Below the pieces are notes generated by a model. The model was not told where the DNA came from and did no database searches. It saw only the letters and a program-made list of their open reading frames with translations. The position numbers were made by a program, and so were the translations under genes. From NCBI GenBank assembly GCA_000503835.1, contig CP006914.1:45790-109789 (forward strand): 64,000 bases of DNA, written 5' to 3'. Source of the stretch: a candidate division WWE3 bacterium RAAC2_WWE3_1 (GTDB lineage Bacteria > Patescibacteriota > WWE3 > UBA101185 > UBA10185). The first letter of the stretch is position 1, and each line of letters begins with the position of its first letter. Positions 48,868 through 58,102 of the stretch are shown in pieces.

Positions 48868-50480
48868 TGCTTAAATTGCTCAAAAATTACAAAATAGAAA
48901 TAATTTTCGTCTTACTTTTTATATTGTCCAGGTTTCCTGACCTTGGGTACGACGTCTTCAATACCGACGTGTGGAAATGGAAAGCCAGGAGCTACGATTT
49001 CGGAACCGGTGTTTTTACATGGGATTTGGAAAAGACAATTCAGAAATATCACCCGGGTGTCACTTTGATGTGGCTCGGAACCGCGGCAATCAAGGTTTAC
49101 AATTTTTATTCCGGATACTATCCGGTGGAAAATAATACCCAAATGATCTTTCAACTGCACTTTGTACAGAAACTTTTTGTTACGACGGCAGTAGCTGTAA
49201 CTTTGGCGTTCGGTCTTTTTGTATTAAAAAAGTTATTCGGGGCAAGAAAAGCCTTGCTCGTTGTTGCATTACTTAGTTTAGAACCTTTTTACATTGCACT
49301 GACACGCGTTTTTCATTTGGAGGGATTAATGTCGACTTTCATGTTTGCATCGTTTCTCTGGCTTTATTATTACACCCTCGATGTAACCAAGAAAAAAAGG
49401 TTATTACTTTCGGCGGTATTTGCCGGTTTGGCGTTCTTGACCAAGACATCGGCGTTATTTATGTTCCCTTATGCGGGGTTAATTCTGTTGCTGGAGGGTT
49501 GGAAGAGATCAAAGAATTTTGCGGGGGCCGTACGCGATGCTCTGCCGAAGATAGGGCAGTGGATTTTGGTATTCGCGGTCGTATTTGTGGCAGTTTGGCC
49601 AGCTATGTGGGCTTTTCCGAGCCAGGCTCTAAGTGCATTGTATAGAGGGGTTTCGGAGATAGGGATTGAGAGGGAGCACGTGCAATTCTATTTCGGCAGT
49701 CTCGTCGAAGATCCCGGCTTTTTTTACTATTTTGTAGTTTTGGGGCTAAGGTCCTCGTACCTGTTAATTTTAGGTTTAGCCGGTGTCGCGGTCTTTTGGA
49801 AAAAAATATTCAATGAAGGACAACGAAAGTTTTTGTTCTACATTTTGTTATTTGTAGGATTTTACTTTGCACAGTTGATTATCCCTACGAAAAAGCTGGA
49901 CCGCTACATTCTGCCGAATATTATGATGCTCTCTCTTGTCACTTCTTTGTTCTGGATTTGGGTTCTGGAAAAGATAAAAGGCAGAAGCTTTCTCAAATTC
50001 ATCCCGTTGGTAGCAGTGGCAATAATTCCGATGTTATATCTTCATCCTGATTATTTGTCGTATTACAACCCGATCTTCGGCGGCCTTAAAAAAGGAATAA
50101 ACGTTTTGGAACCTAAATGGATGATCGGGGGCAAAGAAATAATAGCTTTCTTTGAACAAAAAATGATCGAAGATGGGACACAGCCGGTATACAGCGATAC
50201 TTCGCCGGAGAGAATAATGAACGGTACGGGCACGCCAAATATACTAACCGTAGCTTTCCAGGAAAAATATTATACTCAGATACATCCTTTTTTCCGTAGA
50301 ATAGGGGGATTTGCGGTCATCGAGGATCTTACGCCTTTTGCGGTCAAGACAAAATATTTTGTCTACCCGGTCTGGAACGACGTTTCTGCGGAAGAAAAAA
50401 GATTCGGGCTCAGGTACATCGATAGTATTTATCTCCGGGGCGTGGAGGTGTACAGGGTCTACGAAAGAACTCCATTATGA
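48864..50480 (+). CDS. GT-C membrane glycosyltransferase, ArnT/PMT-like (paralog B of 45798)
   Basis: YHPGVTLMWLG, LEPFYIALTRVFHLEG, KKLDRYILPNIMM. Confidence 0.65.
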   Translation: MMLKLLKNYKIEIIFVLLFILSRFPDLGYDVFNTDVWKWKARSYDFGTGVFTWDLEKTIQKYHPGVTLMWLGTAAIKVYNFYSGYYPVENNTQMIFQLHFVQKLFVTTAVAVTLAFGLFVLKKLFGARKALLVVALLSLEPFYIALTRVFHLEGLMSTFMFASFLWLYYYTLDVTKKKRLLLSAVFAGLAFLTKTSALFMFPYAGLILLLEGWKRSKNFAGAVRDALPKIGQWILVFAVVFVAVWPAMWAFPSQALSALYRGVSEIGIEREHVQFYFGSLVEDPGFFYYFVVLGLRSSYLLILGLAGVAVFWKKIFNEGQRKFLFYILLFVGFYFAQLIIPTKKLDRYILPNIMMLSLVTSLFWIWVLEKIKGRSFLKFIPLVAVAIIPMLYLHPDYLSYYNPIFGGLKKGINVLEPKWMIGGKEIIAFFEQKMIEDGTQPVYSDTSPERIMNGTGTPNILTVAFQEKYYTQIHPFFRRIGGFAVIEDLTPFAVKTKYFVYPVWNDVSAEEKRFGLRYIDSIYLRGVEVYRVYERTPL

Positions 50481-51754
50481 TCGGAGCGCTAATACAAAAG
50501 GTAAAAAGCAATCAATATTTGATTGGGACGGTTTATATAGGTGCGGGCAGTATTTTCGCGGCAATTTTTTCTTACCTTCTCCAGTTCGTTTTCGGAAGAA
50601 TTCTTTCGGTCGCAGATTTCGGGTCATTTAACGCTTTAATCTCATTAACATATTTAGTCGGAGTTCCCGCGGGGGTGTTCGGTGTTTCACTCGTAAAATA
50701 TGTTTCGGAACTTTCATCAAAACAGGACACAAAAAAACTTACCGCTTTGTACTGGAAACTGCTAGTGCTGTCTCTGTTGCTCGGAGTGGGAATTTCACTA
50801 ATTATATTTTTGTTAAGATCCGGTATTTCGGAGCAGTTAAAGATCTACGATAACAATGCTATTACCGCTTACGCCATACTGATGGGATTATCGTTTGTGG
50901 GGGCCATACCATCTTCGTATCTACAAGGTCTTCTGAGGTATCGTGCCTTCGCATTTTTTAACGTTACCTCCAGCTTTTATCGTTTTGCCTTGTCGGCTTT
51001 AGCTGTTCTACTCGGATTTGAACTGACCGGAGCCTTCGGAGGAATGTTTGTAGCAGGTCTGTTGGCAATAATTACCGCATTTTTTATTTTGCGAAAAAAT
51101 CTCACCGTATTTGAAAACATAAGTTTAGTCGATGACTACAAAAAATTGGTCGCATTCAGTCTGCCGGTAATATTTGTTAATTTCGGACTAATGCTTTTAA
51201 ACAATATCGATCTCATCCTCGTCAAGAAATATTTTGAACCTGAGACAGCCGGTTATTACGCGGGCACCGTAACTTTGGGTAAAATTTTTCTGTTCGGGGC
51301 CGGTGCCGTATCGACAGTAATGTTCCCGACCATTTCCTCTTTGGCAGCCCGTGGGTTAAATTACAGCCGGGCGTTCTTTAAATTTTTATCACTGCAGTTG
51401 GTGTTGGTAGCGGGGGGATTAGTTATCTTCTTCGTTTTTCCCTCGTTCCTTACAAGACTGTTCTTCGGAGAAAGATTTATGAACTCGGTGGAATATCTGC
51501 CGATGTTCTCGCTTTTCATCGGTCTTTATATAGTTATAAATTTTCTCATTCTTTTCTTTTTGGCCGTCAGTAGAACATCGGTGTTCCTTCTTTTGCTACC
51601 CGGGCTTATAGTGCAGTACCTGCTCATAAATTCAAACCACATGACTTTGTACGATATAATCACCGCGGACATATATGCTGGTATAATCAGCCTAGTACTT
51701 CTTACCGCGTTCTTCGTTATAGGAAGCAATGGAAAAAGAACAAAAGAAATCTGA
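50477..51754 (+). CDS. Wzx-like polysaccharide/oligosaccharide flippase (MOP superfamily)
   Basis: 425 aa, 12-14 TM helices. Confidence 0.6.
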   Translation: MIGALIQKVKSNQYLIGTVYIGAGSIFAAIFSYLLQFVFGRILSVADFGSFNALISLTYLVGVPAGVFGVSLVKYVSELSSKQDTKKLTALYWKLLVLSLLLGVGISLIIFLLRSGISEQLKIYDNNAITAYAILMGLSFVGAIPSSYLQGLLRYRAFAFFNVTSSFYRFALSALAVLLGFELTGAFGGMFVAGLLAIITAFFILRKNLTVFENISLVDDYKKLVAFSLPVIFVNFGLMLLNNIDLILVKKYFEPETAGYYAGTVTLGKIFLFGAGAVSTVMFPTISSLAARGLNYSRAFFKFLSLQLVLVAGGLVIFFVFPSFLTRLFFGERFMNSVEYLPMFSLFIGLYIVINFLILFFLAVSRTSVFLLLLPGLIVQYLLINSNHMTLYDIITADIYAGIISLVLLTAFFVIGSNGKRTKEI

Positions 51755-52562
51755 AAAACTAGTTTCGATAATTGTTCCTGCGTACAAACAAGAAAAAACC
51801 ATTAAACAGGATCTTGAAAGTATTCTGAACACTCTGCTTCAGACCAGATGGGAGTTTGAGATTATAGTTGTTGTCGACGGATTTTTAGACAAAACATACG
51901 ATATTGCCAGGTCCTTAGAAAATAAAAAACTAAAGGTTTACGGTTATGAAACAAATAAAGGTAAAGGTTACGCGATAAGATACGGAATGGCACGGGCATC
52001 GGGTGATTACATTTCGTTCATCGACGCGGGAATGGACATAAATCCTAACGGAATATCAATGCTCCTGGAACACATGGAATGGTACGGAGCGGATATTATT
52101 GTCGGGAGTAAGAAACACCCTGTTTCGAAAGTTGATTATCCTCTTGTGAGAAAAATCTATAGCTGGGGTTATCACACTTTGGTGGGGTTGCTTTTCGGGC
52201 TTAAAGTAAAGGATACGCAGACGGGGTTGAAAGTATTTAAAAGAGAAGTGCTTATAAAAGTCCTCCCCCGTTTACTGATAAAAGAGTTTGCTTTTGATAT
52301 CGAGTTATTGTCGGTAGCAAGCCATCTGGGGTTTGTTAATATTTACGAAGCTCCGGTGCACCTCACTATGGATTTCTCCCGGTCTACCTTCTCCCCATTT
52401 TTTCTTCTGGATAAAAACATCAGGAATATGCTTGTGGATACTGCAGCAGTTTTTTACAGGCTTAAAATATTAAAATACTACGACGATTCCAGTAACAGAA
52501 AATGGGTGTATGACAAAGAACTTGACATGAGAATTAACACTGGAGAGTTGAGAAATGAATAG
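51729..52562 (+). CDS. GT2-family glycosyltransferase
   Basis: LVSIIVPAYKQEKTI...VVDGFLD...FIDAGMD. Confidence 0.72.
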   Translation: MEKEQKKSEKLVSIIVPAYKQEKTIKQDLESILNTLLQTRWEFEIIVVVDGFLDKTYDIARSLENKKLKVYGYETNKGKGYAIRYGMARASGDYISFIDAGMDINPNGISMLLEHMEWYGADIIVGSKKHPVSKVDYPLVRKIYSWGYHTLVGLLFGLKVKDTQTGLKVFKREVLIKVLPRLLIKEFAFDIELLSVASHLGFVNIYEAPVHLTMDFSRSTFSPFFLLDKNIRNMLVDTAAVFYRLKILKYYDDSSNRKWVYDKELDMRINTGELRNE

Positions 52563-53568
52563 GTTTAGCATAATTATTCCCGTAAGAAAGTTCAACGAGT
52601 TTTTGAAAGAGAACATTTCACACTTAAAGGAACTGACCTACAGGAATTTTGAGGTAATAATTGTTACCGATGAAAAAGAGAACTACGACTTTCAGGATTC
52701 GAGATTTATTTTAACTAACTCAGGTCCGATTGGTCCGGGTGAAAAAAGGAACCTGGGAGCGGCAAGAGCTACGGGGGACGTTTTGTCTTTTTTGGACGAC
52801 GATGCTTATCCGGAAAAAGACTGGTTGGATAGGGCGGCGGAAATCTTTGAAAATGAGGATGTTTTTGCACTGGGGGGCCCGGCCATAACTCCCAAAGATG
52901 CCAGGTTTTTGGAGAGAATGTCCGGAAGAGTGCTGGAATCGTGGATGGCCAGCGCGGGGACGGTTTATAGGCACAAACCGGGAAAAAATATGGAAATTGC
53001 TGACTACCCCACGGTAAATCTGTTCGTAAGAAAGGACTCTTTTGATAGGGCAGGGGGCTTCCCTGTGGAATTTTGGCCGGGTGAGGACACCAAACTTTGC
53101 CTCGAGCTTGTAAAATCGTACGGGAGAAAATTCGTCTACGATCCAAGACCCGTCGTTTACCACCACAGAAGAAACCTTTTCATTCCGCATCTAAAGCAAA
53201 TATCCAGGTACGGACGCCACAGGGGGCAGTTTGCGAGGATTTTTCCTGAAACCTCCAGGCTTCCTTCATATTTCGCTCCCTCAATGTTCGTGGCAGGATT
53301 GGTGTTAGGCCCGTTTATATCATTATTTATTCCACAATTACTTAAGTTTTATATTTTCGTTGTAGGCGTATATCTTATAATGCTGGTTTTAGAGAGCGTA
53401 AGAGTTTTTCTTAAAGACAAAGATCCGCGCAGTGTCTTTTATGTCGGTGCGGGAATATTTTTAACACACGTTGTATACGGAGTAAATTTCATAATTGGTA
53501 TTATGAAGAAACCTGAGTTAAAATTGAGGAGCGTCGATAAATCATCCGGAAATTATTTAGGAGGATAA
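52555..53568 (+). CDS. GT2-family glycosyltransferase with a C-terminal TM region
   Basis: FSIIIPVRKFNEF...FLDDDAYPE...; hydrophobic C-terminus. Confidence 0.72.
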   Translation: MNRFSIIIPVRKFNEFLKENISHLKELTYRNFEVIIVTDEKENYDFQDSRFILTNSGPIGPGEKRNLGAARATGDVLSFLDDDAYPEKDWLDRAAEIFENEDVFALGGPAITPKDARFLERMSGRVLESWMASAGTVYRHKPGKNMEIADYPTVNLFVRKDSFDRAGGFPVEFWPGEDTKLCLELVKSYGRKFVYDPRPVVYHHRRNLFIPHLKQISRYGRHRGQFARIFPETSRLPSYFAPSMFVAGLVLGPFISLFIPQLLKFYIFVVGVYLIMLVLESVRVFLKDKDPRSVFYVGAGIFLTHVVYGVNFIIGIMKKPELKLRSVDKSSGNYLGG

Positions 53569-53826
53569 ATGGAAGAAGTAACTACATATAAAAATCCAAA
53601 CTCGAAAGTGATAATAAAAGTCATAAATGATAAATGTATAAGTGCGGCGACCTGTATAATTCACGCGCCCGAAACTTTTGATCTCAACCCCGATGGTATT
53701 GTGTACGCGAAAGAAGGAACGTGGGATGAGGCCGAGAAAATTATCAAAGGGGCAAAATCCTGTCCGACAACTGCGATAATTGTCGAAGACCTTGAAGGCA
53801 ACGTGTTGTATCCTGAGAACAAATAG
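53569..53826 (+). CDS. Single-cluster [3Fe-4S]/[4Fe-4S] ferredoxin (Fer4_13/15, P450-partner type)
   Basis: DKCISAATCIIHAPETFDLNPDGIVYAKEG...SCPTTAIIV: a C-x5-C ... CP pattern like actinobacterial Fdx. Confidence 0.7.
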   Translation: MEEVTTYKNPNSKVIIKVINDKCISAATCIIHAPETFDLNPDGIVYAKEGTWDEAEKIIKGAKSCPTTAIIVEDLEGNVLYPENK

Positions 53827-53844
53827 ACAGGTGTCTATATCTTA

Positions 53845-53873
53845 TTGAACTTTCCCGGGGCATTGTATATACT
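53845..53873 (+). promoter_or_regulatory. Sigma70-like promoter: -35 TTGAAC (53845-53850), 17-nt spacer, -10 TATACT (53868-53873), ahead of the radical SAM gene.
   Basis: Hexamers read directly; AAGGA SD 8 nt before ATG 53900. Confidence 0.5.
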
Positions 53874-53899
53874 AAACAGATGAAAAAAGGATTTTTCCG

Positions 53900-55513
53900 A
53901 TGAAAATTGCGATAGGCTACCCTCCAATAGATCAGCTTAAAGGAGTTCCTTTATTATCTCAGAATAGGCAGTTCCAGTATTTCAACGCCCCCACATATAT
54001 TTACCCCATGGTTCCGGCTTATGCGGCTTCTTTGGCCAAAGAACGGGGATACAATGTGGTTTGGATGGACGGAATCTCCGAGAAGAAAACGTACGCAGAA
54101 TGGCTCACCGAGCTTGAAAATGAAAAGCCCGATTATCTTATGATGGAGACCAAAGCTCCGGTTCTAAAGTTCCATTGGAAAATAATAGATGAAATTAAAG
54201 TGAAATTTCCTAACATGAAGGTGGTTTTGGTAGGAGATCATGTTACCTGGAATCCTGTTGAAACGCTGGATGCCTGCAAAGTAGATTACATCATAACGGG
54301 GGGCGATTACGACTTTTTGCTTAGTGATATGGTCGATGCCATTAAAAATAATGCCTTTTTACCGGGTGGAATTTACGGAAGAAAAGAAGACACCGGCGTA
54401 TCGATTGATCCCAAGTGGCTGAAGATGCACAAGTCCGAAATATCCGGAGAAGAAGCATACTTTCAGAGTGGTCCTTTAGAGCTTCAACATAATCTTGATG
54501 ATCTTCCTTTTGTTGACCGTGACCTTACCAAGTGGAAACTTTACGCGTATGCGAACGGAAATTATAAATACACACCGGCGACCTACATGTATTCAGGAAG
54601 GGATTGCTGGTGGAACAGGTGTACCTTTTGTGTTTGGGACCATACACTAAATCCCAAAGGATTTTACAGAAGGTTTTCTCCCGAAAGGCTTTTCGCGGAA
54701 GTTAAACATGTTGTCGATAACTACGGGGTCAAAGAAATTTTTGACGACGCCGGAACCCTGTTTGTAGGACCTCCCCTGAAAAAGTTTTGTGAGCTGTTAA
54801 TAGACTCGGGGTATAACAAGAAAGTTGTTTTCGGGTGCAATATGCGTTTGAATGCTTTAACCTCCGAATATTACCGGTTAATGGGCAAGGCTAATTTTAG
54901 GTTTATTTTATACGGAATGGAGTCTGCGAACCAATTTACTTTAGATAAGCTGGACAAAGGTCTTCAGGTTGAAGAGATTGCGGAAGGTGCCAAAATGGCC
55001 AAAAAGGCAGGTTTGGAGCCCCATATTACAGTAATGCTCGGGTATCCTTGGGAGACTGAGGAAATGGCTCAAAAAACAATAGATTTAGCCAAGGATTTGT
55101 TTAAAAGAGGCTATGTTGACACAATGCAGGCTACAATCGTCATTCCCTATCCCGGAACTCCTTTGTATAAAGAGTGTGTTGAAAAGGATTGGCTGCAGGT
55201 CGGGGCGAAAGATTATGAAAAGTTTGATATGAGGGCGCCGGTCATGAAGATACCTTTTTCGAATGAACATCTGTACGAGCTGACCCAATCACTGTATTCC
55301 TCATTCTTTACCCCTCAGTATATTTTCAGAAAAGTTGTGTCTGTTAGAAATTGGAACGATGTAAGATTTCTCTGGTATTCGGCCTGGAAATTGATAGGCC
55401 ACCTTTTGGATTTTGATAAGGAACAGACTCGGGTAAATTGGTTATCGCCAAAGTTCTGGGGAAATGCGTTAAAAAGTATGTTCGGAACTGCCGCCGTGGC
55501 CAAGAAAGAATGA
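53900..55513 (+). CDS. B12-binding-domain radical SAM enzyme (class B-like) with a non-canonical Cx4Cx2C cluster motif
   Basis: N-terminal B12-binding-like region (DYLMMETKAPVLKFHWKIIDEIKVKFPNMKVVLVGDHVT); SGRDCWWNRCTFCVWDH; downstream radical SAM TIM-barrel blocks. Confidence 0.7.
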   Translation: MKIAIGYPPIDQLKGVPLLSQNRQFQYFNAPTYIYPMVPAYAASLAKERGYNVVWMDGISEKKTYAEWLTELENEKPDYLMMETKAPVLKFHWKIIDEIKVKFPNMKVVLVGDHVTWNPVETLDACKVDYIITGGDYDFLLSDMVDAIKNNAFLPGGIYGRKEDTGVSIDPKWLKMHKSEISGEEAYFQSGPLELQHNLDDLPFVDRDLTKWKLYAYANGNYKYTPATYMYSGRDCWWNRCTFCVWDHTLNPKGFYRRFSPERLFAEVKHVVDNYGVKEIFDDAGTLFVGPPLKKFCELLIDSGYNKKVVFGCNMRLNALTSEYYRLMGKANFRFILYGMESANQFTLDKLDKGLQVEEIAEGAKMAKKAGLEPHITVMLGYPWETEEMAQKTIDLAKDLFKRGYVDTMQATIVIPYPGTPLYKECVEKDWLQVGAKDYEKFDMRAPVMKIPFSNEHLYELTQSLYSSFFTPQYIFRKVVSVRNWNDVRFLWYSAWKLIGHLLDFDKEQTRVNWLSPKFWGNALKSMFGTAAVAKKE

Positions 55514-55544: not shown

Positions 55545-55590
55545 CTTAAAAAAGAAAAGCCGCGAATTGTTTTTTTAAACATCGCGGCTT
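55545..55590 (-). terminator. Intrinsic terminator for the minus-strand small-ORF operon: 9-bp stem (aagccgcga/tcgcggctt); on the minus strand it is followed by UUCUUUUUUAAG.
   Basis: Inverted repeat and the T-run orientation read directly; no T-run on the plus strand. Confidence 0.55.
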
Positions 55591-55598
55591 TGTAAATC

Positions 55599-55907
55599 TT
55601 AGTTAGCATCGGCGAGCTCAAGTTCGTCGTTAATAACGGGGTCCAGGTGAGCGTCGACAAGTGTCTTATTGTTAATTGACACGGCACTGAAGTCTTTCGG
55701 TAGAGTGCTCACATTCACCAAAACTCCTCGTTTCATCCTGGTCACCTGAACCGTAAAATACCTTTCCTGATCGCGTTCAGGGTTTACATACGAGTTTAGG
55801 TTTATGTACAACCTGCCCCCGCTTTTAATAAAGGCGCCCGGTGAAACGAATACCGTCGTGTTCACGGGTTTGGTACGAAGAGTAACCATCGGATCCGAAA
55901 TATGCAT
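55599..55907 (-). CDS. Hypothetical protein F (102 aa); paralog of protein E
   Basis: AAAGGAGAAAA SD immediately upstream. Shares TV.-VS..F...GG.LYIN and TLP...PV..ELE blocks with E. Confidence 0.6.
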   Translation of the reverse strand: MHISDPMVTLRTKPVNTTVFVSPGAFIKSGGRLYINLNSYVNPERDQERYFTVQVTRMKRGVLVNVSTLPKDFSAVSINNKTLVDAHLDPVINDELELADAN

Positions 55908-55922
55908 TTTTTCTCCTTTCTC

Positions 55923-56216
55923 TTAGTTTGAATAGCCGATGAAGCTTTCTTCCAGCTCAACCGGTCTGAAGTTAAACTGTCTTATCACCCAATTGTCCAA
56001 AACCGGTACTTCAAGAAAGGCAGGTAAGGTACATATAGCTACTGTTACGCTGGCAACGAGCGTGATAATGCGTATCGTTTGTTTGGTCGCCAGATTGCAG
56101 GTCAGGCTCACAATCTCCTCGGAGTTTATGTATAGATCTCCTTCGTAGAATGCAAAGACGTCCTGCGAAACATAAGCTACTGTGTACTTTGGCAGATCGG
56201 CAAGTCTGTACAACAT
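55923..56216 (-). CDS. Hypothetical protein E (97 aa) with one predicted TM helix
   Basis: GAGGAG SD 8 nt upstream; 10-nt gap from gene D; hydrophobic IRIITLVASVTVAICTLPAFL. Confidence 0.55.
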   Translation of the reverse strand: MLYRLADLPKYTVAYVSQDVFAFYEGDLYINSEEIVSLTCNLATKQTIRIITLVASVTVAICTLPAFLEVPVLDNWVIRQFNFRPVELEESFIGYSN

Positions 56217-56226
56217 TCTCGGCTCC

Positions 56227-56454
56227 TCAGACTGATATGTATTTCCTCATTGTTCTGACGTATTCCCGTAACAGGTGTCTGAATCTGACTGTAATCTGCG
56301 GGTCCGTTTCGCAAGAGACGTCGATAAAGAATCCCTTTCTGCTCTTTAATACTTCGACGTTGAGATAGTCCGTTCTGTATTTCTCAGCCGCTAGCAATTT
56401 GATTACGTGATCCACCGCATCCTTCGCGTTCCGGTACGACAAAAAGTACGGCAT
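56227..56454 (-). CDS. Hypothetical protein D (75 aa)
   Basis: AAAGGGGA SD before the internal ATG 56454; the longer form (to 56487) would overlap gene C. Confidence 0.5.
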   Translation of the reverse strand: MPYFLSYRNAKDAVDHVIKLLAAEKYRTDYLNVEVLKSRKGFFIDVSCETDPQITVRFRHLLREYVRTMRKYISV

Positions 56455-56473
56455 CTCGGTCCCCTTTCGGTTA

Positions 56474-56770
56474 TCAGTATGGCTCAAACAACTTCGACAT
56501 GAGCTGTTTGAGAGCTATTACCGGGATGTATTCGCCGGTTGCCAGTTTTTCCCTGCTTATGACGTTATTTTTTGCTTTACTGGTGTCGATGTCCATTGTA
56601 TGAAGAATGGAATGCACCCGCCTGACCAGAATGTCGGACTTACTGTTTCCGGACGGATAGCACATGGTGTTTTGGTTGACGAAGCAAATGCCTCCGTCAT
56701 TCGAGTAAAGATCCTCTTCCCTGATGTACGCAGCCTCCCAATTTCTCAGTTCTCTTACGGCTTTCACCAT
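56474..56770 (-). CDS. Hypothetical protein C (98 aa)
   Basis: AAAGAGAGGAGAG SD 6 nt upstream of ATG 56770; the track's longer 56857 start lacks an SD. Confidence 0.5.
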   Translation of the reverse strand: MVKAVRELRNWEAAYIREEDLYSNDGGICFVNQNTMCYPSGNSKSDILVRRVHSILHTMDIDTSKAKNNVISREKLATGEYIPVIALKQLMSKLFEPY

Positions 56771-57007
56771 ATCGCTCTCCTCTCTTTGGATTATTGTTAT
56801 TGATGGGATTCTATCAGCACAACGGGGTGTTTTCAAATCAGTCGGGGCAATATGCATTTTACGTTATGCACAGTCCTTATTTTTCATAAAATTTGCATTA
56901 AAAAATGGTTGGGTATAGTGAGTGCTATCTCCCGCGAAAAGTAATAATTCTTCCCAATTAATAGGATATACTACTCATCGAAAATCATGTCCAGTTTAGA
57001 TTTCCAT

Positions 57008-57047
57008 TTAAAAAAGAGGCCCGTTGTGTTTTGTTGGAACAACGGGC
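57008..57047 (-). terminator. Intrinsic terminator after hypothetical gene B: stem gcccgttg/caacgggc, then CUCUUUUUUAAA on the minus strand.
   Basis: Read directly; the U-tract is only on the minus strand. Confidence 0.55.
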
Positions 57048-57073
57048 TTTAGGCTCTAATAATAAACCTGGTT

Positions 57074-57304
57074 TTACTTGGCCGGGGTAAAGCAAATTGT
57101 TTTCCGGTTGGTCTTTTCACAACAGGCATTGTGGTGTTTCAAAGCAGTTACGAAGTTTTTTGCCTGTTCCGGTGATTCGGAGTAAAAAGTGATACGACTG
57201 CGCTCAGCATCTACGTCATAGTGCTGGTTTTCAAACACATGCACTTTCACTCCGACCTCCATTGCCCGTCCTAAATCATCAGGTCCACTGAAATTAATTC
57301 TCAT
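57074..57304 (-). CDS. Hypothetical protein B (76 aa)
   Basis: AAGGGAGG SD upstream; the terminator follows. Confidence 0.5.
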   Translation of the reverse strand: MRINFSGPDDLGRAMEVGVKVHVFENQHYDVDAERSRITFYSESPEQAKNFVTALKHHNACCEKTNRKTICFTPAK

Positions 57305-57381
57305 TGCCTCCCTTACCTTTCTGTGCCGGTTTACTTTCTGAAATAGGTTCCAACTCTTAGTTTTTGGGTTATTCTTCTACT

Positions 57382-57600
57382 TCAAGAAATCTCCTTTCTC
57401 GCCTCCCGGACAAGCTTGTACGATGCTCCTGAAATGCCCGACATAACCAGCTCCCTTATCAGGAAATCGGCTTCATGTCCTTCGCATAAACTTATCAGGA
57501 GTTTGGGGGAGTCGTAGAGCCAGGGAAAATCGCTTTTACGAAGTAATTCCAGACCCGCAGAAAACGCTTCCTCCGTTAAGAAGTAAAAGTCGTACGTCAT
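57382..57600 (-). CDS. Hypothetical protein A (72 aa)
   Basis: AAAGGGAGG SD 5 nt upstream of the ATG; weak similarity to proteins D and C (SCE...R.LxRE). Confidence 0.5.
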   Translation of the reverse strand: MTYDFYFLTEEAFSAGLELLRKSDFPWLYDSPKLLISLCEGHEADFLIRELVMSGISGASYKLVREARKEIS

Positions 57601-57670: not shown

Positions 57671-58102
57671 ATGTACATAATACTCACGGAAATGGGACAC
57701 CTGAGCCTTTCTTTATTGATAGGATACGCGTGTTTTAAGATTTTTAGACGCATTTCCGGCTTCGTACCGGCTTTATTATCGGGATTTTTTGTGGATTTTG
57801 ACCACCTGATCGATTATTTTATTCACAAAGGGTTGAGCTTTGATGTAAGCAACTTCATTTCCGGGCGGCATTACCATGAAACCAATACTTCTTATATATT
57901 TTTTCATAGCTGGGAACTTGTTTTGTTCCTGGGTGTCCTTACTTACTATTCGAAGAAAAAATATATTTGGTGCCCTTTAGTTCTCGGACTGACGTTTCAT
58001 TTATTGTGGGATTACTTAACGAATCCGGTTCACTGGTATACGTACTTTTTTACCGCGAGATATTTACTGGGCTTCGCGCTGGATAAACTTTTCGTTTTCT
58101 AG
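57671..58102 (+). CDS. Membrane-bound metal-dependent hydrolase, YdjM/DUF457 family
   Basis: GHLSLSLL..., DFDHLIDY, HSWE..., HLLWDYLTNP: His/Asp motif pattern in a 4-TM protein. Possible extended -10 TGTTATAGT at 57651-57659. Confidence 0.5.
   Translation: MYIILTEMGHLSLSLLIGYACFKIFRRISGFVPALLSGFFVDFDHLIDYFIHKGLSFDVSNFISGRHYHETNTSYIFFHSWELVLFLGVLTYYSKKKYIWCPLVLGLTFHLLWDYLTNPVHWYTYFFTARYLLGFALDKLFVF

Follow-up and report, generated by a model that had tools for sequence, protein, structure and literature searches.

What chemistry a radical S-adenosylmethionine (SAM) enzyme, preceded by a small ferredoxin, might contribute to glycan assembly is the question raised by a 64,000-nucleotide (nt) stretch of the genome of candidate division WWE3 bacterium RAAC2_WWE3_1 (Katanobacteria, Patescibacteria; contig CP006914.1, positions 45,790 to 109,789). 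This whole stretch is termed the window, and all coordinates below refer to it unless a related locus is named. Both genes lie on the plus strand: a mono-cluster ferredoxin of 85 residues (Fdx; 53569-53826) is followed after 73 nt by a two-domain radical SAM protein of 537 residues (rSAM; 53900-55513), just as a first-pass annotation of the DNA had described. With moderate confidence, we read Fdx and rSAM as the redox components of a conserved cassette for envelope glycans, in which they would carry out a ferredoxin-driven radical modification of a lipid-linked sugar.

Conservation of the five-gene cassette

The proteins of the window were compared with the six-frame open reading frames (ORFs) of 81 related loci. 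Occurrence was counted, for genes with conserved strand and order, in the 67 loci that include 3.5 kb or more of DNA ahead of the rSAM gene. The order Wzx-GT2a-GT2b-Fdx-rSAM recurs in WWE3 and Microgenomates. In the window the cassette opens with a Wzx-type flippase (Polysacc_synt, PF01943, 73 bits; 50477-51754), which is followed by a soluble family 2 glycosyltransferase (GT2) of 277 residues (GT2a; 51729-52562; Pfam Glycos_transf_2, 89.6 bits) and a membrane-anchored GT2 of 337 residues (GT2b; 52555-53568; Pfam GT2 families), all on the plus strand. The 3' end of the flippase gene overlaps the start of GT2a by 26 nt, GT2a and GT2b also overlap, and the ATG of Fdx directly abuts the GT2b stop codon, its ribosome-binding site (GGAGGA) lying within the last part of the GT2b gene.

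Among the 67 loci, GT2b was present in 66, GT2a in 59 (46-92% identity), Fdx in 57 and Wzx in 53, while GT2a, GT2b and Fdx occurred jointly in 50. The proposed link between the ferredoxin and the radical SAM gene is thereby borne out, with Fdx upstream and on the same strand in most of the related loci. Where present, Fdx always abuts GT2b; its distance from rSAM is mostly below 100 nt and reaches 1-6.5 kb in L001, L013, L016 and L022. In about nine loci without Fdx, GT2b abuts rSAM directly.

The most conserved member of the cassette is rSAM, with 62-92% identity across the related loci. The nearest of these are WWE3 metagenome-assembled genomes (∼92% protein identity), and the loci from Roizmanbacteria and other Microgenomates lie at 62-65%. 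Across the 34 loci that are most distant, median identity was 64% for rSAM, 50% for both Fdx and GT2a, 36% for GT2b and 25% for Wzx. Between WWE3 and Roizmanbacteria the flanking genes change, but GT2a-GT2b-Fdx-rSAM keep their order. In total, 6641 homologs of rSAM were detected at E≤1e-5, and 154 related stretches were found among the GTDB species-representative genomes scanned. Literature searches on Patescibacteria and the candidate phyla radiation (CPR) returned no description of this cassette.

In six loci (L001, 1-1218; L014, L022, L029, L032 and L034), GT2a and GT2b are fused into a single protein of ∼630 residues, which supports a functional pairing of the two enzymes. The fusion is still directly followed by the ferredoxin, where any is present.

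More distant relatives of rSAM also reside among glycan genes. Three of them (P0135, P0131 and P0128; 39-43% identity) are encoded in loci with small GT2s, GT-C/YfhO proteins, nucleotide-sugar enzymes and B12-domain radical SAM paralogs. In L083 (6514-14123), L084 (2216-10217) and L085 (2252-12556), genes for three to four such paralogs each are dispersed among those for small GT2s, GT-C (PMT/YfhO) proteins and methyltransferases. A SPASM radical SAM protein is also encoded in L083, and a CDP-alcohol phosphatidyltransferase and a phosphoenolpyruvate mutase in L084. To judge from this gene content, the three are putative multi-radical-SAM glycan or phosphonate loci. No ferredoxin was found in L083-L085, and the ferredoxin link is specific to the WWE3/Microgenomates clade defined by the cysteine motif described below.

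The radical SAM enzyme as an uncharacterised subfamily

The protein scored 61.4 bits against Radical_SAM (PF04055; cutoff 29.5) over residues 234-397, which places it in the superfamily. Its N-terminus reached 24.8 bits (E 2e-5) against Pfam B12-binding (PF02310), under the cutoff of 32.1. The cobalamin-binding-like domain announced by the first-pass annotation has the support of the fold, which is the two-domain one of class B radical SAM enzymes, with a Pfam score below threshold. In the hidden Markov model check that the same annotation had recommended, the Radical_SAM score was above its cutoff, and those for B12-binding and the curated subfamilies were below theirs. In the layout of the protein, an N-terminal Rossmann (B12-binding-like) domain (residues ∼1-150) is followed by a beta-hairpin insert (∼158-189), the barrel (∼230-430) and a helical C-terminal tail.

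The best NCBIfam matches, both full-length, were HpnJ (153.2 bits, cutoff 577.6) and BchE (90.8 bits, cutoff 481). Weaker matches included ApyD (62 bits), TIGR04072 (49.9), rSAM_ocin_1 (45), AprD4 (42) and HpnR (40.4), and scores of 40-56 bits were obtained for PhpK, MgmA (MJ_0865), HpnR and the C-methylases of ribosomally synthesised and post-translationally modified peptides (RiPPs). Assignment to HpnJ, BchE or AprD4 was ruled out, since the scores are far under the curated cutoffs (577.6, 481 and 500, respectively), and none of 10 representative relatives of rSAM tested reached the HpnJ cutoff. At the level of profile scores, no curated family claims rSAM; its database homologs are labelled “radical SAM protein”, “YgiQ” or “BchE”.

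For an AlphaFold2 model based on an alignment of 32 family members, the mean local confidence (pLDDT) was 80.5 and the global score (pTM) 0.80; its flavodoxin/Rossmann domain and its barrel are confidently predicted. The best Foldseek matches were AprD4 (top), MgmA, TsrM, OxsB, CysS and TokK, with MiaB interleaved and RimO likewise among the structural neighbours. The two-domain neighbours indicate that the class-B-like architecture is real. For the N-terminal domain alone, B12 domains matched no better than CheY receivers. In searches of the PDB by sequence, also with a family profile, only the radical SAM cores of AprD4 and MgmA matched, and neither phmmer nor the profile retrieved a close solved structure. 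AprD4 binds no cobalamin despite its Rossmann-related domain (PMC12931638); with this enzyme as the top structural match, any use of B12 by rSAM is putative. No sequence signature separates the cobalamin-binding from the cobalamin-free cases of this layout. An amphipathic, membrane-binding role for the C-terminal tail was also considered and dropped, as its hydrophobic moments do not exceed those of internal helices.

Taken together, rSAM is an uncharacterised subfamily of the B12-domain radical SAM group. It is marked by a Cx4Cx2C loop with many Trp and Arg/Lys residues, by an insert of ∼35 residues and the helical C-terminal tail, and, in its genomic context, by a dedicated three-cysteine ferredoxin and fixed synteny with two GT2s.

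The Cx4Cx2C motif and its variable cysteine loop

The cluster-binding motif of rSAM reads C236-WWNR-C241-TF-C244 (54605-54631, plus strand), i.e. Cx4Cx2C. It retains the three cysteines that define the radical SAM superfamily, in a spacing other than the canonical Cx3Cx2C. The first-pass annotation had flagged this spacing as atypical and had allowed for a sequencing error; the latter is excluded, since Cx4Cx2C is present in all 120 of the closest database homologs, with an identical string (CWWNRCTFC) in 109. Among the nearer 50%-identity cluster representatives with an intact motif region, most carry CW[WYH]G[KR]C[TS]FC, while most relatives at ∼30% identity have the canonical CP[YF]xCx[FY]C.

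In the alignment of the wider lineage, the loop between the first two cysteines is a hot-spot of length variation. A spacing of x3 occurs in the HpnJ protein annotated by the Prokaryotic Genome Annotation Pipeline (PGAP) and in P0128 and P0136; x4 in the clade of the window enzyme and in scattered distant members (e.g., CPYGKCTYC); x7 in P0131-P0133 and P0143; and x9 to x19 in P0135, P0149 and P0154. Inheritance of the x4 loop from HpnJ was rejected, since the PGAP-annotated HpnJ on a Paraburkholderia graminis plasmid carries CRSKCTFC (Cx3), to which the window motif aligns with a one-residue insertion.

In a few members of the lineage the cluster cysteines are wholly lost. Five full-length proteins (P0141, P0145, P0148, P0150 and P0153; 32-38% identity) have none of the three at the aligned position and, as their sequences suggest, may be catalytically dead paralogs.

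Several homologs, all of them from outside the window (P0122-P0126, P0146 and P0256), contain Hint/LAGLIDADG inteins. The insertion site lies directly before the first cluster cysteine in P0123 and before the third in P0122 and P0124-P0126, such that a cluster cysteine (equivalent to C236 or C244 of the window protein) serves as the +1 extein nucleophile. Two independent insertion sites thus fall within one 9-residue motif.

Precedents for the spacing are available. Crystal structures of OxsB show a [4Fe-4S] cluster bound by CX4CX2C, and in class B enzymes the residues of the cysteine loop touch both SAM and cobalamin (PMC9204698). The sugar C-methylase GenD1 likewise has Cx4Cx2C (PMC4340712), and a CX4CX2C megacluster, Megacluster-4-11, appears in the RadicalSAM.org listing (PMC9477430). 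The motif is real, clade-defining and atypical, yet with precedent.

The ferredoxin and its glycosyltransferase neighbours

Fdx scored above the Pfam cutoffs for the single-cluster families Fer4_13, Fer4_19 and Fer4_15 (39.9 bits against PF13370 Fer4_13; cutoff 24.5), in agreement with its initial description as a single-cluster ferredoxin. Its additional description as a P450-partner type holds for the fold family only. The Pfam scan of the window ORFs, which covered 35-64 kb, included no P450 domain; the partner here would be a radical SAM enzyme rather than a P450. The ligand set is C23-x2-A-x2-C29...C65-P. The CxxAxxC...CP pattern is kept in 63 of 63 Fdx homologs from related genomes, and its central Ala is invariant. 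Fdx aligns over the full fold with the ferredoxins of Pyrococcus furiosus, Rhodopseudomonas palustris (4ID8) and Desulfovibrio gigas (FdII), with which it shares the CxxXxxC...CP ligand pattern and from which it differs in an N-terminal extension of ∼15 residues. Ala26 occupies the position of D14 in the P. furiosus protein. An invariant Ala at the central ligand position leaves three Cys ligands, as in mono-cluster ferredoxins of the [3Fe-4S] kind, and the cluster of Fdx is predicted to be of this type.

GT2a has no predicted transmembrane helix. Its best sequence match in the PDB is the dolichol-P-mannose synthase 5MLZ (2.9e-13), with the GtrB-like sll0501 among the next, and it gave weak NCBIfam matches to PpgS, ArnC, AglJ and dolichyl-phosphate hexose transferase. 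By this resemblance to Dpm1, GtrB and ArnC, it is probably similar to polyprenyl-phosphate sugar synthases. In GT2b, three C-terminal transmembrane segments are predicted (residues 245-263, 267-285 and 299-317), and the motifs DDD (D81-D83), GED (G176-E177-D178) and QxxRY (Q215xxR218Y219) are present, together a D,D,D...QxxR[W/Y]-type signature. The AlphaFold2 model of GT2b (pLDDT 90.1) matched hyaluronan synthase, TarP, PcManGT and BcsA as its top Foldseek hits; a fold closest to hyaluronan and cellulose synthases and PcManGT is unusual for a protein of 337 residues. Since GT2b folds like generic membrane GT2 synthases, a membrane acceptor is supported without being identified.

The broader setting is a glycan locus, as had been noted at the outset. 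In addition to the syntenic cassette, it encodes a UDP-glucose dehydrogenase, three GT4s, four GT-C/PMT_2 proteins, a DUF2079 protein, a second Wzx, a small Dpm1-like GT2, a methyltransferase, a DegT aminotransferase and a GNAT-GT4 fusion.

Comparison with characterised radical SAM enzymes

Three of the enzymes compared here are non-methylases. BchE is the cobalamin-dependent anaerobic Mg-protoporphyrin IX monomethylester cyclase, a class B oxidative cyclase that is not a methylase; AprD4 is a radical SAM 1,2-diol dehydratase whose substrate is the aminoglycoside paromamine; and OxsB is the cobalamin-dependent radical SAM ring-contraction enzyme of oxetanocin biosynthesis, again not a methylase. 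For HpnJ, a contraction of the glucosamine ring of bacteriohopanetetrol (BHT)-glucosamine to the cyclitol ether has been proposed (PMC9204698, PMC13459092).

HpnJ (TIGR03471) is the best-scoring curated family for rSAM (match at 33-481), and the PGAP-annotated HpnJ is 29% identical to it over 412 residues (E 1e-36). The two proteins share the N-terminal Rossmann domain and the radical SAM barrel. In L082, hpnJ lies directly upstream of hpnI, itself a GT2 gene, whereas in the window the GT2 genes precede rSAM. The window enzyme differs further in its Cx4 rather than Cx3 motif, in the insert of ∼35 residues (∼160-197), in its longer C-terminal tail and in its dedicated ferredoxin, which has no counterpart in L082. 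No hopanoid gene occurs among the annotated neighbours of rSAM, so that the gene context of HpnJ is lacking here.

A membrane protein of the LPG_synthase_TM family (PF03706) adjoins hpnJ-hpnI in Paraburkholderia (L082, 8554-9606), and a gene cluster whose tested member (L008, 1352-2227) matches PF03706 is located ∼8 kb upstream of rSAM in 14 CPR loci. The double occurrence may be coincidence or may reflect a shared flippase-like accessory.

AprD4 (PDB 6FD2) is the best phmmer match of rSAM in the PDB (3.8e-9) and is second to MgmA by family profile. The two proteins have the same two-domain layout at an identity of only ∼15%. The substrate of AprD4 is a sugar; its pathway leads to a soluble antibiotic, whereas rSAM is encoded in an envelope-glycan operon. 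BchE (TIGR02026) ranks second among the curated families (match at 40-476). Its turnover is supported by ferredoxins without over-reduction of the cobalamin (PMC13598231). The BchE substrate is a tetrapyrrole, unlike the sugar proposed for rSAM, and no chlorophyll-pathway genes were seen in the scanned glycan locus (35-64 kb). OxsB (PDB 5UL2-5UL4) showed no sequence similarity to rSAM by phmmer or profile search of the PDB, and differs in its size (∼730 residues), additional domains and nucleotide substrate. By any of the membership tests applied, rSAM is not HpnJ, BchE, AprD4 or OxsB.

A proposed role in the modification of a lipid-linked sugar

Radical SAM enzymes require a one-electron donor. 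Since rSAM is the only redox enzyme in the cassette, Fdx is best read as its dedicated reductant. In the pathway we propose, GT2a (Dpm1/ArnC-like) and GT2b would assemble a sugar at the cytoplasmic face, on a carrier lipid of the membrane that is probably polyprenyl phosphate. The [4Fe-4S] cluster, with C236, C241 and C244 as its ligands, would receive an electron from Fdx; SAM would then be cleaved, and the resulting 5'-deoxyadenosyl radical would abstract hydrogen from the lipid-linked sugar. The sugar would be rearranged or deoxygenated, by an HpnJ-like ring contraction or an AprD4-like 1,2-diol dehydration, in preference to methyl transfer. The product would be flipped by Wzx and transferred to an extracytoplasmic acceptor by the neighbouring GT-C (PMT_2) enzymes. 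Such a logic would parallel that of two known pathways. In the ArnC/ArnD/ArnT pathway, the sugar is altered on its lipid carrier ahead of flipping. Similarly, in the HpnI/HpnK/HpnJ pathway, a GT2 places N-acetylglucosamine on a membrane lipid and the radical SAM enzyme contracts the ring (PMC9204698, PMC13459092).

Several observations weigh against this proposal. An HpnI-like identity for GT2a or GT2b was rejected, as no significant BLASTP similarity was detected, and no equivalent of the HpnK deacetylase was found in the cassette. The similarity of rSAM to HpnJ, BchE and AprD4 is far below the curated cutoffs, and their chemistry is consequently not transferable. The cysteine loop itself (residues 218-255) is of low confidence in the structural model. 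Ferredoxins of the [3Fe-4S] type are often too oxidising for the reduction of a radical SAM cluster, and the same may hold for the three-cysteine Fdx. Furthermore, Fdx is missing in ∼10 of the 67 loci, and it stays joined to GT2b where several kb part it from the rSAM gene.

The main competitor, possible although on balance doubtful, is that rSAM is a cobalamin-dependent class B methyltransferase, which would use methylcobalamin to methylate an unactivated carbon of a sugar or polyprenyl-glycan, with Fdx reducing both cluster and cobalamin. This is essentially the sp3 C-methylation first envisaged for the locus. The two-domain architecture fits it, methylases predominate among the characterised class B enzymes (PMC9204698), GenD1 methylates a sugar and shares Cx4Cx2C (PMC4340712), the methylases TsrM, MgmA, CysS and TokK are among the structural matches, and the weak NCBIfam scores of 40-56 bits extend to PhpK, MgmA, HpnR and the RiPP C-methylases. 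The ranking of similarities nevertheless does not favour methylation, as the two best sequence families (HpnJ and BchE) and the best structure (AprD4) are all non-methylases. The B12-binding score is below threshold, AprD4 provides a cobalamin-free example of the same fold (PMC12931638), and ferredoxin reductants gave no methylcobalamin in BchE (PMC13598231). Because HpnJ, BchE and AprD4 are all non-methylases and two of them act on sugars, we rate rearrangement or deoxygenation, by analogy, as somewhat more likely than C-methylation.

It is unlikely that rSAM acts instead on the lipid part, by cyclisation, cross-linking or methylation of a polyprenyl or acyl chain in the manner of GrsA, the ladderane enzyme or HpnP/HpnR. 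Several enzymes that modify lipid tails are of class B (PMC13459092), and there are weak matches to the lipid-biosynthesis B12/radical SAM family TIGR04072 (49.9 bits) and to HpnR (40.4 bits); the conserved cassette, however, includes no lipid-synthesis genes, its conserved neighbours are all glycosyltransferases and a flippase, and kinship with HpnJ and AprD4 points to sugar substrates. We regard as very improbable an incidental linkage, in which the substrate of rSAM would be a peptide, a protein or a cofactor, as in RiPP-type or tRNA/protein modification, and Fdx would be a general housekeeping electron carrier. The tighter joining of Fdx to GT2b than to rSAM is consistent with such a view, as are the weak matches to ApyD (62 bits) and rSAM_ocin_1 (45 bits), both of them RiPP enzymes, and the presence of MiaB and RimO among the structural neighbours. 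Against it, GT2a-GT2b-Fdx-rSAM retain their order between WWE3 and Roizmanbacteria despite changing flanks, no conserved small ORF resembling a precursor peptide was seen beside rSAM, and the distant relatives of rSAM are also embedded in glycan loci.

The modification of a lipid-linked sugar thus being the preferred reading, its product could, as a bolder and distinctly tentative extension, be a sugar new to bacterial envelopes, such as one that is carbocyclic (cyclitol-like) or radical-deoxygenated, near-universal and strongly constrained in WWE3/Microgenomates. It would be made on the lipid carrier by an HpnJ/AprD4-like, possibly cobalamin-independent radical SAM enzyme with its own [3Fe-4S] ferredoxin. 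If true, this would explain both the conservation of rSAM far above its glycosyltransferase partners and the inteins on the cluster cysteines.

The probable end of the operon and adjacent genes

A GC-rich hairpin, probably marking the end of the operon, is located at 55556-55591 (no strand assigned), between the rSAM stop codon and convergent minus-strand ORFs. Its predicted RNA fold has an energy of -25.6 kcal/mol (z -3.8), which was equalled in 0 of 200 shuffles; owing to its loop length and the missing T-tract, it was not called by a simple terminator scan. The stable hairpin and the convergent ORFs together indicate that rSAM closes the plus-strand unit. The promoter TTGAAC-17-TATACT in the spacer between Fdx and rSAM (53845-53873, plus strand), which had been rated as good, is present but matches at 9 of 12 positions, and such sites number 6 in the region versus 5.5 ± 1.7 in shuffles. 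This count is within expectation, and the site was accordingly given no weight as evidence.

Beyond the hairpin, six small ORFs on the minus strand (102, 97, 86, 127, 76 and 72 residues) occupy 55599-57600, and none has a Pfam or PHROG match. The ORFs of 102, 97 and 127 residues were compared across related loci, and homologs of these three were restricted to the 3-5 closest WWE3 relatives. In many other genomes, a YdjM-like protein or the next GT2 directly follows rSAM, so that the minus-strand ORFs look like a lineage-specific insertion that splits the glycan locus. In the window, the YdjM-like small membrane protein is encoded further downstream (57671-58102, plus strand) and, from synteny in other genomes, is a possible accessory member of the cassette. 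Its homolog is located 0-140 nt 3' of rSAM in 16 loci (e.g., L008, L015, L040 and L041, and likewise L054, L061, L066, L071 and L076), and the homolog in L002 has a weak match to PF04307.

Significance for CPR envelopes and radical SAM enzymes

To our knowledge, the envelopes of the Patescibacteria (CPR) are almost unknown biochemically, and most of the lineages are uncultured. The strongest new facts reported here are the conserved cassette, the constraint on rSAM, the variable cysteine loop and the inteins on the cluster cysteines in some members. If the reaction were to prove an ordinary sugar C-methylation, the finding would amount to a routine new subfamily. The lineage would bear on the role of the Rossmann domain in non-methylating class-B-like radical SAM enzymes (HpnJ, BchE and AprD4), and also on how the length of the cysteine loop, which here spans x3, x4, x7, x9 and longer, shapes the geometry of cluster, SAM and cobalamin. 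With its four to five genes, widespread and centred on a radical SAM enzyme under unusually strong constraint, the cassette offers a concrete and expressible entry to CPR envelopes: four small genes, the product of which would be readable by mass spectrometry of lipid-linked sugars.

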